A DNA stretch of 45,859 nt, taken from IMG/VR virus record IMGVR_UViG_2718218168_000002; one strand, written 5' to 3'. The notes under the pieces are model-generated. The model did no database searches. It was not told the DNA's origin and saw only the letters and a list, made by a program, of their open reading frames with translations. The translations under genes were made by a program, and so were the position numbers. Shown piece by piece: positions 6,434 to 18,247 of the stretch. Source of the stretch: a virus (Duplodnaviria > Heunggongvirae > Uroviricota > Caudoviricetes). Numbering within the stretch: position 1 is the first letter of the stretch; each line of letters opens with the position of its first letter.

Positions 6434-6566
6434 TTTTGGGAACTCCTGGCTGATTAAGTACGTCGATGAGTCGTTTCCATCCGTCACGTAATTTGCGGGT
6501 GATTCGTTCAAGTAAAGATTCGGAAGGGCAGCCAGCAACAGGCCACCCTGCAATGGCATATTGCAT
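6426..6566 (-). CDS. cIII: CIII-like protease inhibitor
   Basis: 46-aa ORF below the track cutoff: MQYAIAGWPVAGCPSESLLERITRKLRDGWKRLIDVLNQPGVPKNG, matching recalled lambda CIII; AAGGAG Shine-Dalgarno upstream. Confidence 0.65.
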   Translation of the reverse strand: MQYAIAGWPVAGCPSESLLERITRKLRDGWKRLIDVLNQPGVPKNG

Positions 6567-6645
6567 GGTGTGCTCCTTATTTATACATAACGAAAACGCC
6601 TCAAGTGAAGCGTTATTGGTATGCGGTAAAGCCGCGCTCAGGCGG

Positions 6646-9095: not shown

Positions 9096-9812
<717 letters not shown>

Positions 9813-13976: not shown

Positions 13977-14423
13977 ATGAAGCAAATATACATGCTTCGC
14001 AACGAAGCAATCAGAAATAACGCCATAGACGCAATACTCTCACTTCCGATCGACGACAAGTCACCTCACGAAGTCCACATTAAAGAACCCAAGCGGAGCA
14101 ATCCTCAAAACCGCCTTATGTGGGCGTTATTGCAGGACGTATCACGTCAGGTGCTTTGGCATGGACAGAGACTTGCGCCGGAGGACTGGAAAGACCTGTT
14201 TACTGCCCTGTGGCTTAAGACCAAAAAACTGGAGCAACGAAGTGTGCCTGGTATCGACGGTGGCGTTGTCATGCTTGGCGTGCGTACCAGCAAAATGCGA
14301 AAGGCCAGCATGACTGAGCTTATCGAAATCATGTTTTGGTTCGGCTCAGAGCGCAACGTGCGGTGGAGTGATGACTCCCGGCGAGAGTATGAATGGTCAC
14401 AACGAAAAGGGAAGGCTGCATGA
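13977..14423 (+). CDS. ninB: NinB (Orf-family recombination protein)
   Basis: 148-aa ORF; NPQNRLMWALLQDVSRQVLWHG and the C-terminal RNVRWSDDSRREYEW match the recalled lambda NinB pattern. Confidence 0.75.
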   Translation: MKQIYMLRNEAIRNNAIDAILSLPIDDKSPHEVHIKEPKRSNPQNRLMWALLQDVSRQVLWHGQRLAPEDWKDLFTALWLKTKKLEQRSVPGIDGGVVMLGVRTSKMRKASMTELIEIMFWFGSERNVRWSDDSRREYEWSQRKGKAA

Positions 14424-14947
14424 CTATCAAATCAAATACGCCAGCGTCAGATAGGTATCGGCTTATTGAGGATTATCTGTATTTAGACGGAGATACAGTC
14501 AGATACAAAAAGGACTCGCTAAAACACCCCAACCACAGCCACCGGGCAGGAGATGAAATTAAAACATCGATAAATGGATCTGGGTATAGACAGGTGTGTT
14601 TTGCAGGCATTCAGATGTTTGTTCACGTAGTTGTTTTTGCGCTGCACAACAAAAGAATGCCATTGAAAAATATTGACCATATTAACGGGAACAGGCTGGA
14701 CAATTCCCCAAAAAATCTTAGGGAGGCAGGCCGGATAGCAAACAGCCGAAATCAGAAAACTAAGTGCAATAGCCGTTCTGGAATAAAAAATGTTTTATGG
14801 AACAAGCAAAAAAATAAATGGGCCGTTCAAGTGCGCACAGATTTTGGCCGGTTGTATTTTGGGCTCTATGAAGATCTTGAACTTGCTTGTTTGGTTGCCA
14901 GTGAGGCTATCAACAAATATCACGGACAATATGCGAAGGTTGTATGA
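14420..14947 (+). CDS. HNH endonuclease with AP2-like DNA-binding domain
   Basis: Internal ATG (MTIKSN) of track ORF 14393..14947; HNH motif HVVVFALHNKRMPLKNIDHINGNRLDNSPKNL; overlaps the ninB stop by 4 nt. Confidence 0.65.
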   Translation: MTIKSNTPASDRYRLIEDYLYLDGDTVRYKKDSLKHPNHSHRAGDEIKTSINGSGYRQVCFAGIQMFVHVVVFALHNKRMPLKNIDHINGNRLDNSPKNLREAGRIANSRNQKTKCNSRSGIKNVLWNKQKNKWAVQVRTDFGRLYFGLYEDLELACLVASEAINKYHGQYAKVV

Positions 14948-15474
14948 TTAAGCATAAATCAGAAACACCAAAAGAAGTTAGAGACTGCTGGCAAACACCG
15001 CTTTGGCTTTTTGATGCACTGGATATTGAGTTTGGATTCTGGCTGGATTCGGCAGCGAGCGACAAAAATGCTCTGTGTGCTCACTGGCTAACTGAGGCCG
15101 ACGACGCGCTCAATTCTGAGTGGGTAAGCCACGGTGCAATCTGGAATAACCCACCGTACAGCAATATCAGGCCGTGGGTGGAAAAAGCCGCTGAGCAGTG
15201 CATACAACAGCGACAGACGGTAGTGATGCTTGTGCCAGAGGATATGTCAGTCGGATGGTTCAGCAAGGCTCTGGAGAGTGTTGACGAAGTTCGTATTATC
15301 ACTGATGGACGGATTAATTTTATCGAACCATCGACAGGGCTGGAGAAGAAGGGAAACAGCAAAGGCTCCATGCTGCTGATTTGGCGACCGTTCATCAGTC
15401 CTCGACGGATGTTTACTACCGTATCCAAAGCGGCATTGATAGCGATCGGGCAGGGCGTCAGGAGGGCTGCATGA
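14944..15474 (+). CDS. Phage Dam-family DNA N6-adenine methyltransferase
   Basis: 176-aa ORF with the catalytic NPPY motif (WNNPPYS); ATGA start/stop overlap with the HNH gene. Confidence 0.7.
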   Translation: MIKHKSETPKEVRDCWQTPLWLFDALDIEFGFWLDSAASDKNALCAHWLTEADDALNSEWVSHGAIWNNPPYSNIRPWVEKAAEQCIQQRQTVVMLVPEDMSVGWFSKALESVDEVRIITDGRINFIEPSTGLEKKGNSKGSMLLIWRPFISPRRMFTTVSKAALIAIGQGVRRAA

Positions 15475-16316
15475 TAAATGTCGTTAGTTTCTCCGGTGGC
15501 AGGACGTCAGCATATTTGCTCTGGCTAATGGAGCAAAAGCGACAGGCAGGTGAAGACGTGCATTACGTTTTCATGGATACAGGGGCAGAGCACCCTAAAA
15601 CATATGAGTTCATCCGAAATATCGTCAGTAACTGGAAAATAGACTTACATTGCCTTCGTGTAATACCTAATCCAGAAATGGGGAAGGCCAGTAGTTATGA
15701 AGAGATAGGTGTCAATGATATTGGTCCAGATCTTATACCGTGGAAAAGGATGTTAAATAAATACGGACATCCATATATCGGCGGTGCGTTCTGTACCGAC
15801 AGAATGAAGTCTGTTCCATTCACCAAATATTGTCAGGAAAAGTTTGGGAAAGGAAATTACATCACATGGCTTGGCATTCGCACAGATGAACCAAACAGGC
15901 TTAAAAGGGCTAATGGTTTTCGGTACCTGGCTGATATAAGCGATTTTGAAAAACAGGATGTGCTTGATTGGTGGAGTGGGCAGAAGTTTGATCTTGGCAT
16001 ACAGGAGCATCTTGGTAATTGTGTTTTCTGTATAAAAAAAAGTATGCAAAAGGTTGCGCTGGCAGCCATGGATGAGCCAGAACTTGCAGATGCATTTATC
16101 AACATCCTTGATACAGAAATAAAAACAGGAAAGGAACCGGTTATGTATCGAGGGAATAATACACTTAAATCACTGATTGCCTTGTTTAGTGATATATCAA
16201 GAGATGAGTTAGCCTCAAGAATGACATCAATGCGACAGTATGATTCAGGTTCGTGTTCTGAATCATGTGAAGCATTTTCATGTCAGCTTGGATTTAATTT
16301 TGAGGATGCGGCATGA
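15471..16316 (+). CDS. PAPS-reductase-like PP-loop ATPase family protein
   Basis: Internal ATG after AGGAGG; PP-loop motif [12 protein letters not shown]; C-terminal Cys clusters; 4-nt overlap with the methyltransferase gene. Confidence 0.65.
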
Positions 16317-16495
16317 GACGACAGCGACGAAGCATCACCGACATAATCTGCGAAAACTGCAAATACCTTCCAACGAAACGCTCCAGAAATAAACGCAAGC
16401 CAATCCCAAAAGAATCTGACGTAAAAACCTTCAACTACACGGCTCACCTGTGGGATATCCGGTGGTTAAGACATCGTGCGAGGAATACAAGGTGA
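16313..16495 (+). CDS. ninE: NinE-like protein
   Basis: 60-aa [32 protein letters not shown]..., recalled as lambda NinE; start overlaps the upstream stop. Confidence 0.55.
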
Positions 16496-16586
16496 TTGAC
16501 GCGATGATTTATTCGGGGCTATATTCCCAGCACGCCAGCAAAATCTGGCGTCGGGATTGGAACCCCGGATAGAGACCGCGACAAAC

Positions 16587-16610
16587 ACACGCCGCGAGCG
16601 TGTTTTTTAT
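16587..16610 (+). terminator. Rho-independent terminator upstream of the ORF6N moron
   Basis: Stem acacgc/gcgtgt with loop cgcga, followed by tttttatt. Confidence 0.5.
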
Positions 16611-16769
16611 TGTCGTATGCACGCGCACATCTGAATTATGGTGGGGCGCATGGGGGAGCTGAAAAGCTCGCCGGTCGGTTTCCCGGTAGTTCCAACCCTG
16701 TGCGTCTCACCACCCGATGATTGGAACCTGACGGTGGTGATAGTTTAGAAACCACCAGAGGGCGTCATT

Positions 16770-17450
16770 ATGACAACTCAAATTTCTGTTGAAACTCTCT
16801 CCCCGATCACCCATAACCAGATTCCTGTTATTACCACCGAACTTTTGGCGCAGCTTTACGGCACTGAGCCGGTGCGTATTCGCCAGAATCATCATGAGAA
16901 CAAAGTACGCTTCGTTGAAGGGATACACTTTTTCAAAGTTGTTGGTAATGACCTTAAAGAATTGCGGGTAGCTTTAAACTACTCACAAAATCCCATCTCT
17001 CCCAAAGCCCGCTCCCTCATCCTCTGGACAGAACGAGGCGCAGCACGCCACGCCAAAATGCTCGAAACCGATCAGGCGTGGGAAGTGTTCGAAAAACTGG
17101 AAGACTGCTATTTCAGCCAGTGCGAGAAAAATACAGGTAAACAAGAGAAGAGCACCAACAAGCTTTCCGCAAAAGAAGCAAACAGCCTTGTATGGTTATG
17201 GGATTATGCTAACCGCTCACAGGCATTATTCCGCGAATTGTATCCAGCGCTAAAGCAAATTCAGTCTAACTATTCCGGCAGATGCTACGACTACGGTCAT
17301 GAGTTCTCGTATGTTATTGGAATGGCGAGAGACGTTTTAATCAATCACACACGAGATGTTGATATCAATGAGCCAGACGGACCAACGAATCTTTCCGCAT
17401 GGTTAAGGCTTAAGAACAAAGAATTACCTCCTTCACTGCATCGCTACTGA
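16770..17450 (+). CDS. ORF6N-domain antirepressor-like protein
   Basis: 226-aa ORF; N-terminal pattern [11 protein letters not shown]...[10 protein letters not shown]...[36 protein letters not shown] typical of the ORF6N domain; C-terminal half unassigned. Confidence 0.6.
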
Positions 17451-17467
17451 CAATTGACAACTTAACA

Positions 17468-17492
17468 AACCCAGCTTCGGCTGGGTTTTTTA
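17468..17492 (+). terminator. Rho-independent terminator after the ORF6N gene
   Basis: Stem aacccagc/gctgggtt with loop ttcg, then a T run; two TTGACA hexamers lie just upstream. Confidence 0.65.
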
Positions 17493-17518: not shown

Positions 17519-18247
17519 ATGACAATGAACGAGCTGATAAATAGCAATGTCATCAAAATGACTAGCATTGAAATCGCTGAGCTTACAGGTAAGCGTCATG
17601 ACAATGTGAAACGTACCATCGAAACGCTGGCTAAAAATGGTGTTATCCGGCTTCCTCAAATTGAGGTTTCCGAAAGAATCAATAACTTAGGGTTCAATGT
17701 TCAGTACGAGCATTACGTCTTCGAGGGCGAACAAGGTAAGCGAGACAGTATTGTCGTTGTTGCCCAGTTGTCGCCGGAATTCACGGCTCGCCTTGTTGAC
17801 CGTTGGCGAGAGCTTGAAGAAACTGCGGTTAATATCCCCAAAACGCTACCGGAAGCGTTGCGCCTTGCTGCTGACCTTGCTGAGCAGAAAATGCAACTGG
17901 AAAACCAGCTCGCAATTGCCGCACCTAAAGTTGAGTTTGCCGATCGCGTTGGCGAGGCCAGCGGAATTTTGATTGGAAACTTTGCAAAGGTTGTTGGTAT
18001 TGGTCCAAACAAACTGTTTGCGTGGATGCGCGATCACAAAATCCTTATTGCTTCAGGTTCCCGGCGCAATGTGCCAATGCAGGAATATATGGATCGCGGC
18101 TATTTCACAGTGAAAGAAACAGCGGTCAACACAAATCACGGAATACAGATATCGTTCACCACAAAAATCACCGGGCGTGGTCAACAGTGGCTGACCAGAA
18201 AGCTGCTCGATAACGGAATGCTGAAAGTAACAGGGGAGGCTGCTTAA
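17519..18247 (+). CDS. Rha/Ant-family phage antirepressor
   Basis: 242-aa ORF; N-terminal Rha-like segment (MTSIEIAELTGKRHDNVKRTIETL) and a C-terminal AntA/AntB-like region; GAGAGG before the ATG. Confidence 0.65.
   Translation: MTMNELINSNVIKMTSIEIAELTGKRHDNVKRTIETLAKNGVIRLPQIEVSERINNLGFNVQYEHYVFEGEQGKRDSIVVVAQLSPEFTARLVDRWRELEETAVNIPKTLPEALRLAADLAEQKMQLENQLAIAAPKVEFADRVGEASGILIGNFAKVVGIGPNKLFAWMRDHKILIASGSRRNVPMQEYMDRGYFTVKETAVNTNHGIQISFTTKITGRGQQWLTRKLLDNGMLKVTGEAA

Follow-up and report, generated by a model that had tools for sequence, protein, structure and literature searches.

The immI operon of phages P1 and P7, with the order c4-icd-ant1/2, was reportedly described by Citron and Schuster in 1990, and the annotated P1 record NC_005856 marks in it a promoter (P1c4/P51b), the sites a1 and b1, the c4 RNA, the sites a2 and b2, and the start codon of icd. 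A second system, the isrK-orf45-anrP locus of Gifsy-1 (Hershko-Shalev et al. 2016, PMC4825925), has a leader in which the pairs G28-C162, G31-C159, and C18-G173 were proven by compensatory mutagenesis. In the literature that we searched, IsrK and c4 are kept apart: the 2016 paper on IsrK (PMC4825925) does not cite the P1 work, and a 2025 review gives IsrK and c4 as unrelated entries. The c4 and c4-a1b1 motifs were reported by Weinberg 2010 (PMC2864571), and APSE phages have been annotated with both IsrK and c4 RNAs (PMC7313666). Here we analyze a stretch of 45,859 nucleotides of a tailed phage (IMG/VR record IMGVR_UViG_2718218168_000002; hereafter the window), which holds a lambdoid prophage flanked by a lacY-like gene and by an integrase gene and tRNA. 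Positions 16496–17492 of the window, in the nin region, very probably form one riboregulated antirepressor module of the P1 immI/Gifsy-1 isrK type. The kind of module is already known, its parts and pairing logic having come from P1 (1990) and Gifsy-1 (2016) and being curated in Rfam.

The module begins in the 274-bp gap between the ninE stop codon (16495) and the ATG at 16770. An earlier note on this DNA had described the gap as about 270 bp of non-coding sequence; the length holds and there is no long open reading frame (ORF) inside, but three Rfam families, isrK, C4 antisense RNA, and c4-a1b1, match above their curated thresholds, and the gap is densely filled with RNA genes rather than being empty non-coding DNA. 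We assign the parts of the module and their putative pairings from sequence, homology, and covariation:

16496–16525, plus strand: predicted promoter P_isrK (-35 TTGACG at 16496–16501, 18-nucleotide spacer, -10 TATATT at 16520–16525)
16519–16571: c4-a1b1 target motif (Rfam, 47.9 bits against a threshold of 46.7)
16532–16608, plus strand: IsrK small RNA (sRNA), 77 nucleotides (Rfam RF01394, 78.2 bits against a gathering score of 50, full model 1–77)
16557–16563, plus strand: box a1, UUGGAAC, the first direct repeat, hairpin-2 loop of IsrK; counterpart in the P1 annotation: a1 (TTGACAG)
16572–16578, plus strand: box b1, GAGACCG; aligns with the annotated P1 b1 site
16587–16610, plus strand: IsrK intrinsic terminator, stem ACACGC/GCGUGU (hairpin 16587–16603) and U6 tract (terminator scan; 3' end of the Rfam isrK model)
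16634–16717, plus strand: c4-type antisense RNA (Rfam RF01695, 71 bits against a gathering score of 45, model 1–87)
16638–16748, plus strand: 36-codon upstream ORF in the position of Gifsy-1 orf45, stop codon TAG at 16746–16748
16676–16682, plus strand: box b', CGGUUUC, hairpin-2 loop of c4
16689–16695, plus strand: box a', GUUCCAA, the inverted copy, in the c4 internal loop
16721–16727, plus strand: box a2, UUGGAAC, the second direct repeat, 4 nucleotides beyond the 3' end of the Rfam c4 match; counterpart in the P1 annotation: a2
16748–16753, plus strand: box b2, GAAACC, 4 nucleotides upstream of the Shine-Dalgarno sequence AGAGGG (16757–16762); maps to the annotated P1 b2
16770–17450, plus strand: antirepressor gene, 226 amino acids (Pfam, PHROG, tblastn)
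17467–17492, plus strand: unit-ending intrinsic terminator, 9-bp stem (17467–17488) with core CCCAGC-UUCG-GCUGGG, then a U tract (terminator scan: 9 pairs, 5 G-C)

The earlier note had pointed to a repeated motif, and its copies lie where it placed them, with GATTGGAACC at 16555–16564 and 16719–16728 and the inverted GTTCCAA at 16689–16695. On window statistics alone these repeats are only marginally significant: the 7-mer TTGGAAC is not enriched (6 observed against 7.6 expected, 3 of the 6 within 171 bp), and the 10-mer GATTGGAACC occurs twice against 0.17 expected, a count reached by 1 of 100 shuffles. We take the repeats as real because of comparative covariation. A protein-seeded genome search gave 39 loci from many genera (numbered L002–L040), 31 of which carry isrK/C4 or sRNA-Xcc1, mostly immediately 5' of the ORF6N match, and a leader-seeded pattern scan of viral contigs added 120 further loci; box variants were counted on 114 unique leaders and pairs were formally counted on a 59-sequence alignment. 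In this alignment both the a1:a' and the a':a2 helix comprise 7 pairs; compensatory changes are seen at 6 of these in a1:a' and at 5 in a':a2, and the proportion of paired cells is 99.5% and 96.6%, respectively. In controls with the partner slid by 1–3 columns, 35–45% are paired, and none of 500 shuffles reaches the observed values. Each of the 24 a' variants in the 114 leaders has a matching a1 and a2. These variants include GGAAC/GUUCC, GGCGU/ACGCC, GGUCU/AGACC, GAGAC/GUCUC, CGAAC/GUUCG, UGCAC/GUGCA, and AGCAC/GUGCU, and one has a 1-nucleotide insertion in all three copies. In the window itself a' forms 7 bp with a1 and 7 bp with a2, and on this comparative evidence the three TTGGAAC/GTTCCAA copies are the RNA pairing boxes a1, a', and a2.

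The earlier note overlooked another set of boxes, b1/b'/b2. In the window b':b1 comprises 7 bp, one of them G-U, and b':b2 comprises 6 bp; across the 114 leaders the b' loop has 53 variants, most with matching b1 and b2, and at least 71 combinations of a' with b' occur. For both sets the mean longest complementary run was compared within and between leaders:

a':a1, 6.96 bp within a leader, 4.57 bp between leaders
a':a2, 6.96 bp within a leader, 4.80 bp between leaders
b':b1, 7.79 bp within a leader, 5.30 bp between leaders
b':b2, 8.01 bp within a leader, 6.10 bp between leaders

In relatives whose b2 run is 7 bp or longer, the median distance from the 3' end of b2 to the start codon is 10 nucleotides (interquartile range 8–11), which puts b2 over or beside the Shine-Dalgarno sequence as in P1. 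The surrounding structures are kept as well, with 97.6–100% pairing and many compensatory changes: IsrK hairpins 1 and 2 are 99.8–100% paired in the 59 sequences, hairpin 1 with 4 compensatory pairs, and the three helices of c4 (a 17-bp outer stem and two hairpins within it) are 97.6–98.7% paired, with compensatory changes at 14 pairs. The 3' CCACC of c4 is nearly invariant across leaders. These patterns support RNA–RNA pairing as the probable conserved function and speak against both protein operators and a conserved peptide.

The earlier note had instead read the TTGGAAC copies as candidate operators, which would make them DNA sites for a repressor or activator protein controlling a promoter between two terminators that insulate a moron. 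Two direct copies and one inverted copy within 171 bp would suit such a reading, as would a unit that does have a promoter and a terminator, and a regulatory role of the repeats survives our analysis. However, the sole good promoter lies upstream of the supposed upstream terminator, a curated RNA structure places every copy in a defined unpaired element, the copies change together as Watson-Crick partners (occasionally G-U), and the second, non-identical box set behaves alike. Moreover, identical N-terminal DNA-binding-domain sequences (AnrP and the window protein) go with different boxes, and the homologous Gifsy-1 pairs were proven at the RNA level (PMC4825925). We therefore give protein operators next to no chance and regard that proposal as largely refuted already.

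The leader of P1 immI is collinear with that of the window at only 54.2% nucleotide identity. Both have the order promoter, a1, b1, c4 (comprising a' and b'), a2, b2, and first start codon, and they have in common antisense boxes as specificity determinants and an antirepressor as the regulated function. The annotated P1 features correspond to the window as follows:

P1 -35: window 16496–16501
P1 -10: window 16520–16525
P1 a1 (TTGACAG): window 16557–16563 (TTGGAAC)
P1 b1: window 16571–16578
P1 c4: window 16640–16714
P1 a2 (TTGACAG): window 16721–16727, by position and by the repeated box, the automatic column mapping being shifted (16718–16722)
P1 b2: window 16746–16759
P1 icd ATG: window ATG at 16770

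The two systems also differ. In P1, icd comes first and is translationally coupled to a KilAC-domain ant gene, whereas in the window the ORF6N/P22_AR_C gene stands in the place of icd and a KilAC gene (17519) follows only after the terminator. In P1, b2 covers the ribosome-binding site of icd, whereas the core of b2 in the window (16748–16753) abuts the Shine-Dalgarno sequence. P1 has a second promoter under the C1 repressor (Op51) and is a plasmid prophage; the window phage has a lambda-type cI and is a lambdoid integrated prophage, and it shows no C1 operator, though no search for operators was made. Because the P1 annotation gives a1 and b1 as putative targets only and a2 and b2 as functional, one could suppose that c4 is the sole regulator, masking a2/b2, and that the IsrK part (a1/b1 and its terminator) has no regulatory role. 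Against this stand the covariation of a1 and b1 with a' and b', which is as tight as that of a2 and b2 or tighter, and the predicted pairing energy of a':a1 (-18.6 kcal/mol), which is stronger than that of a':a2 (-9.6 kcal/mol); in Gifsy-1, furthermore, anrP translation rises more than 100-fold when IsrK is provided in trans (PMC4825925). We consider a switch run by c4 without IsrK very improbable.

The Gifsy-1 leader is closer, being collinear with that of the window at 82.8% identity over 279 nucleotides, with the same promoter, IsrK hairpins, terminator, and AUG codons at +107 and +119. The proven Gifsy-1 pairs G28-C162, G31-C159, and C18-G173 correspond to 16559:16693, 16562:16690, and 16549:16704 in the window, all of which are standard pairs, and the window a1:a' pairing, of the first repeat with the inverted copy, is the core of the Gifsy-1 "helix b-I." The boxes themselves differ, box a being GGCGU in Gifsy-1 and GGAAC in the window and b' being CGGUGAU and CGGUUUC, respectively, so that cross-talk with Gifsy-1 is not expected. 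The c4-type RNA of the window is the counterpart of Gifsy-1 STnc1160/"orf45," and a stable processed RNA of about 80 nucleotides exists in Salmonella (PMC4825925). Map positions differ too: the Gifsy-1 isrK locus lies between antQ/STM2617 and anrP/STM2616, after Q, whereas the window module lies between ninE and the Rha/KilAC gene, upstream of Q. Unlike in Gifsy-1, no IsrJ-like RNA was detected downstream in the window (Rfam). This copy is thus set apart by its box address, its P22_AR_C C-terminal domain, its non-overlapping upstream ORF, and its position in the nin region.

The upstream ORF bears on how far Gifsy-1 can serve as a model. In Gifsy-1 it has 45 codons and overlaps the start of anrP (AUGA), whereas in the window it has 36 codons; its AUGs at 16638 (+107) and 16650 (+119), with the start site taken as 16532, are kept, and it ends 21 nucleotides before the antirepressor ATG. 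A strict transfer from Gifsy-1 would make the c4-like stretch coding sequence and structure of the upstream ORF only, with IsrK activating the ORF and the antirepressor made by translational coupling, and without any c4 acting in trans or any targeting of a2/b2. SPA-tagged orf45 is indeed translated in Gifsy-1, where start- and stop-codon mutants lower activation (PMC4825925), and the conserved AUGs and nearby stop of the window would fit. But the frame that starts at the 5' AUG of c4 is not conserved, ranging from 8 to more than 45 codons across 79 leaders: its stop overlaps the gene start (AUGA) in 7 of them, lies within 25 nucleotides in 8 (the window included), and lies further upstream in 47. 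The Gifsy-1 authors themselves note that the nucleotides and not the peptide sequence are conserved (PMC4825925). In addition, such a transfer leaves a2 and b2 without a role, yet both covary with a' and b'; a stable processed RNA is found in Salmonella as mentioned above; and the stretch itself is recognized by the c4 model and can be aligned with the mature c4 of P1. We regard translational coupling alone as unlikely, though of these alternatives it is the one we take most seriously. Taken as a gene in its own right the 16638–16748 ORF was rejected, its reading frame not being conserved, as was a small ORF at 16450–16572, which overlaps the promoter and IsrK.

Under the preferred reading, in which c4 is an antisense RNA of the module, the mature c4 is predicted at 16640–16714 from alignment to the P1 c4 ends, and by the same alignment RNase P may cut at 16639|16640. 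Such a cut would split the first start codon of the upstream ORF, so that excision of c4 and translation of the upstream ORF would be mutually exclusive.

The promoter and the terminators are the other parts on which the architecture of the unit depends. P_isrK is the top sigma-70 match in a promoter scan of the region (10/12), ends 6 nucleotides before the start of the isrK model, and aligns with the -35 and -10 of P1c4/P51b; transcription is predicted to start at about 16532. In 59 related leaders A(-11) and T(-7) of the -10 element are invariant and the TT of the -35 element is nearly so, with a variable spacer, and the homologous PisrK of Gifsy-1 drives transcription (280 versus 3 Miller units; PMC4825925). 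IsrK consists of hairpin 1 (16532–16551), hairpin 2 (16552–16567), which presents box a1, a single-stranded stretch with box b1, and the intrinsic terminator, and thus has the sequence features of an sRNA, with a predicted promoter upstream and a hairpin followed by U6 at the 3' end. The sRNAs AgvB and AsxR (3' of PR') and HnrS (late genes), known from E. coli O157 prophages, were set aside as other RNAs at other loci.

The loop of IsrK hairpin 1, GCAAAAUC (16538–16545), is almost invariant, being present in 13 of the 14 loci found via the protein rather than the RNA, and its P1 counterpart is GCAAAUUC. We found nothing in the leader complementary to this loop, which may be an A-rich site for Hfq; isrK (RF01394) is a family of Hfq-binding sRNAs.

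The earlier note saw the gene as an independently regulated moron insulated by terminators on both sides. Hairpins with U tracts are indeed present at 16587–16603 and 17467–17488, but the upstream one does not insulate: it is the terminator of IsrK itself, and because the promoter is upstream of it, the 16587–16610 terminator lies inside the unit as an internal attenuator. The isrK terminator of Gifsy-1 is leaky, and read-through gives the orf45-anrP messenger RNA (mRNA) (PMC4825925). As for the moron, the unit has its own predicted promoter and terminator and a moron-like layout, but its cargo is a phage regulatory gene and not a lysogenic-conversion gene. The helix of a terminator is only 48% paired in the 59-sequence alignment, which is an artefact of variable-length hairpins and was not counted against the terminator.

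The position of these hairpins raises the further alternative that they are mainly nin-region terminators like lambda tR2–tR4, making Q dependent on N, and that the RNA module is incidental or decayed. The module does lie between pR and Q (19006) in a classic nin region, and the record of phage Nil2 annotates tR2 in the same region; the IsrK terminator may also act as a barrier to pR transcription that is not antiterminated, and such a role is compatible with a riboregulated antirepressor module. As the main function, however, it sits poorly with RNA elements that are all intact and score on par with the best relatives, and with a promoter whose key bases are conserved. The module is also found elsewhere in other phages (after Q in Gifsy-1, on the opposite strand in some Stx2a phages), which makes it a portable unit and not merely a terminator pair. 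That the RNA elements are incidental to a terminator function seems improbable to us.

The gene at 16770–17450, which the earlier note had recognized as an ORF6N gene, is an ORF encoding 226 amino acids, with an ORF6N domain at residues 12–97 (Pfam PF10543, E=3.2e-20). Its C-terminal half, left unassigned there, can be assigned: residues 126–198 match P22_AR_C (Pfam PF10548, E=3.6e-29). Over its full length the protein matches PHROG 377 "anti-repressor Ant" (E=2.2e-85). Residues 1–118 are 70% identical to Gifsy-1 AnrP, the first 27 residues being identical, whereas P22_AR_C is absent from AnrP and the C-terminal domains are unrelated; residues 123–226 (104 residues) are 91–95% identical to the Ant C-termini of P22-like Salmonella phages. 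The N-terminal domain of P22 Ant, in turn, differs from that of the window protein. P22 ant is under the control of Mnt, Arc, and the sar antisense RNA and is not known to be controlled by c4/IsrK. The "ant" genes of Shiga toxin (Stx) phages (VT2-Sakai, 1717, 2851, and Stx1a phages) match the window protein over its whole length with 73–88% identity and lie behind the same leader. A sequence search for a solved structure of the antirepressor protein found none. Expression of AnrP induces Gifsy-1 (PMC4825925), and in phi24B Ant promotes induction, its knockout leaving late-promoter activity after induction at about 27–56% of wild type (PMC3064807). Among 93 distinct leaders the first gene behind the leader encodes ORF6N in 66, Bro-N in 16, and Rha in 4, and 19 also carry P22_AR_C; the leader cassette is dedicated to antirepressor-like cargo.

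Drawing on the Gifsy-1 and P1 experiments, we hypothesize the following steps. P_isrK would fire in the lysogen, and most transcripts would stop at 16608 to give the 77-nucleotide IsrK. RNA from read-through would be translationally silent, either because a'/b' pair in cis with a1/b1 (the Gifsy-1 "structure A") or because RNase P excises c4, whose a'/b' would then pair with a2/b2 beside the Shine-Dalgarno sequence. Excess free IsrK would titrate a'/b' and open the leader to translation of the antirepressor, possibly helped by ribosomes that end the 36-codon upstream ORF 21 nucleotides before the ATG. The antirepressor would then inactivate the cI-type repressor (9096–9809), so that induction would be triggered or accelerated independently of RecA cleavage, and the variable boxes would give each module a private address. 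During lytic growth, N-modified pR transcription would read through both terminators and the antirepressor would be a delayed-early function, as proposed for phi24B (PMC3064807). A comparable arrangement is known from the satellite P4, whose CI RNA (seqA/seqC) is a processed antisense RNA lying, as here, between upstream and downstream complementary targets in the same transcript and was put forward as a structural analogue by the Gifsy-1 authors (PMC4825925); it differs in belonging to another RNA family, with no Rfam match in the window, in acting through transcription termination, according to the cited literature, and in serving replication genes rather than an antirepressor.

Several observations weigh against our reading of the locus as such a module. 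The b':b2 pairing of the window has only 6 bp and ends 4 nucleotides before the Shine-Dalgarno sequence, whereas relatives typically have 8–9 bp over or beside it; the predicted b':b2 duplex (-16.6 kcal/mol) reaches 16765 and so brackets that sequence. The whole-RNA duplexes of IsrK with c4 (-52 kcal/mol) and of c4 with the leader (-40 kcal/mol) are equaled by 37–38 of 500 shuffles, and because these energies only marginally beat shuffles, we rely on box-level pairing and covariation only. The minimum free energy (MFE) fold of the 259-nucleotide leader consists of independent IsrK and c4 hairpins (z = -3.8) and does not form the long-range structure A; MFE folding cannot discriminate between the models. 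The upstream ORF of the window lacks the overlap with the gene start that is seen in Gifsy-1. In Gifsy-1, constitutive expression of the c4 equivalent (STnc1160) together with IsrK raised toxicity instead of lowering it (PMC4825925), a poor fit to a simple model in which c4 represses. Because the C-terminal domain is unlike that of AnrP, the target repressor may differ. Finally, promoter, processing, pairing, and antirepressor activity are all attributed to the window from homology and covariation.

Considering the P1 and Gifsy-1 literatures together, we tentatively suggest, as a possibility to which we attach somewhat less than even weight, that IsrK (a decoy carrying a1/b1), c4 (an antisense RNA carrying a'/b'), and the mRNA target a2/b2 constitute one three-component switch with a combinatorial two-box address. 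Co-resident prophages would then run private circuits or share one, and the leaders with sRNA-Xcc1 would be a second, independently diversified version of the design.

Many ORF6N homologues have sRNA-Xcc1 (RF02221) upstream, in the place of c4. This RNA was found at L001 (phage Nil2, 3530–3800), L006, L008, L011, L013, L014, L016, L017, L023, L030, L031, L033, and L036. The Nil2 antB leader has the order promoter, upstream boxes GCUCAAAAC and GCAAGUAG, terminator, Xcc1 RNA with CUACUUGC and GGUUUUGAGC, and downstream boxes CUCAAAA and CAAGUAG, the latter set over the Shine-Dalgarno sequence, which is the layout of isrK-c4; Xcc1 looks like a second c4-type antisense cassette. Tandem isrK-c4-ORF6N modules occur at L010/L160 (two modules about 1 kb apart) and at L066 (2376–3820). 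Between L010 and L160 the a boxes differ (GGAAC and UGCAC) and the b box is shared (CCUUUUCAG), and at L066 both boxes differ, which suggests duplication followed by diversification of the address.

These assignments correct the annotation, in that a stretch left blank or labeled "hypothetical protein" is, in our reading, a complete riboregulatory leader before an antirepressor gene, which may be able to turn on the prophage while bypassing RecA-dependent cI cleavage. Of 5426 complete E. coli genomes, 1478 contain matching DNA, at up to 7 places per genome, and many Shiga-toxin phages carry the leader too; with such a spread, its control logic bears on spontaneous and stress-driven induction of Stx phages and on cross-talk between prophages. 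In many phage records the IsrK/c4 stretch is unannotated or covered by ORFs, and RefSeq E. coli records list the protein gene only; in Nil2 (L001), the "hypothetical protein" ORFs ORF23 and ORF57 (2506–2577 and 2605–2778) are annotated over the IsrK and c4 RNA genes. In the Stx2a phages PA2, PA8, phi346, and others, the leader (16549–16772) is present at 93.8% identity on the opposite strand and at another map position, at about 4–5 kb in most records and at 32 kb in phi346, with the match beginning after the promoter of the window. The leader cassette has moved between genome positions and may have a different promoter in the Stx2a phages.

The remaining features of the window are those of a lambdoid prophage, and replication genes are present. 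The features that place the module are:

6521–6579, minus strand: lambda cIII thermoregulator RNA element (Rfam RF01804, 88.5 bits)
9096–9809, minus strand: cI-type repressor (helix-turn-helix and peptidase S24)
16313–16495: NinE
19006: Q

The match to the cIII thermoregulator RNA (RF01804) confirms a lambda-type pL operon; beyond it and the families of the gap, an Rfam scan of the window gave no further family at gathering score. The nin region has the order NinB, HNH endonuclease, Dam, PAPS-reductase-like protein, NinE, the gap, the ORF6N gene, the Rha/KilAC gene, YbcO, and RusA. The HNH_3 endonuclease ORF (14393–14947) between ninB and the Dam methylase and the ORF of 311 amino acids with a PAPS-reductase domain (15381–16316) between Dam and ninE are extra nin-region cargo. 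The next gene after the module, at 17519–18247, encodes an Rha N-terminal domain and a KilAC (ANT) domain and matches PHROG 63 "anti-repressor Ant" (E=4.5e-100). This second antirepressor-like gene, right behind the terminator of the module, is called Roi in Nil2, and the KilAC domain of its product is also carried by P1 Ant.

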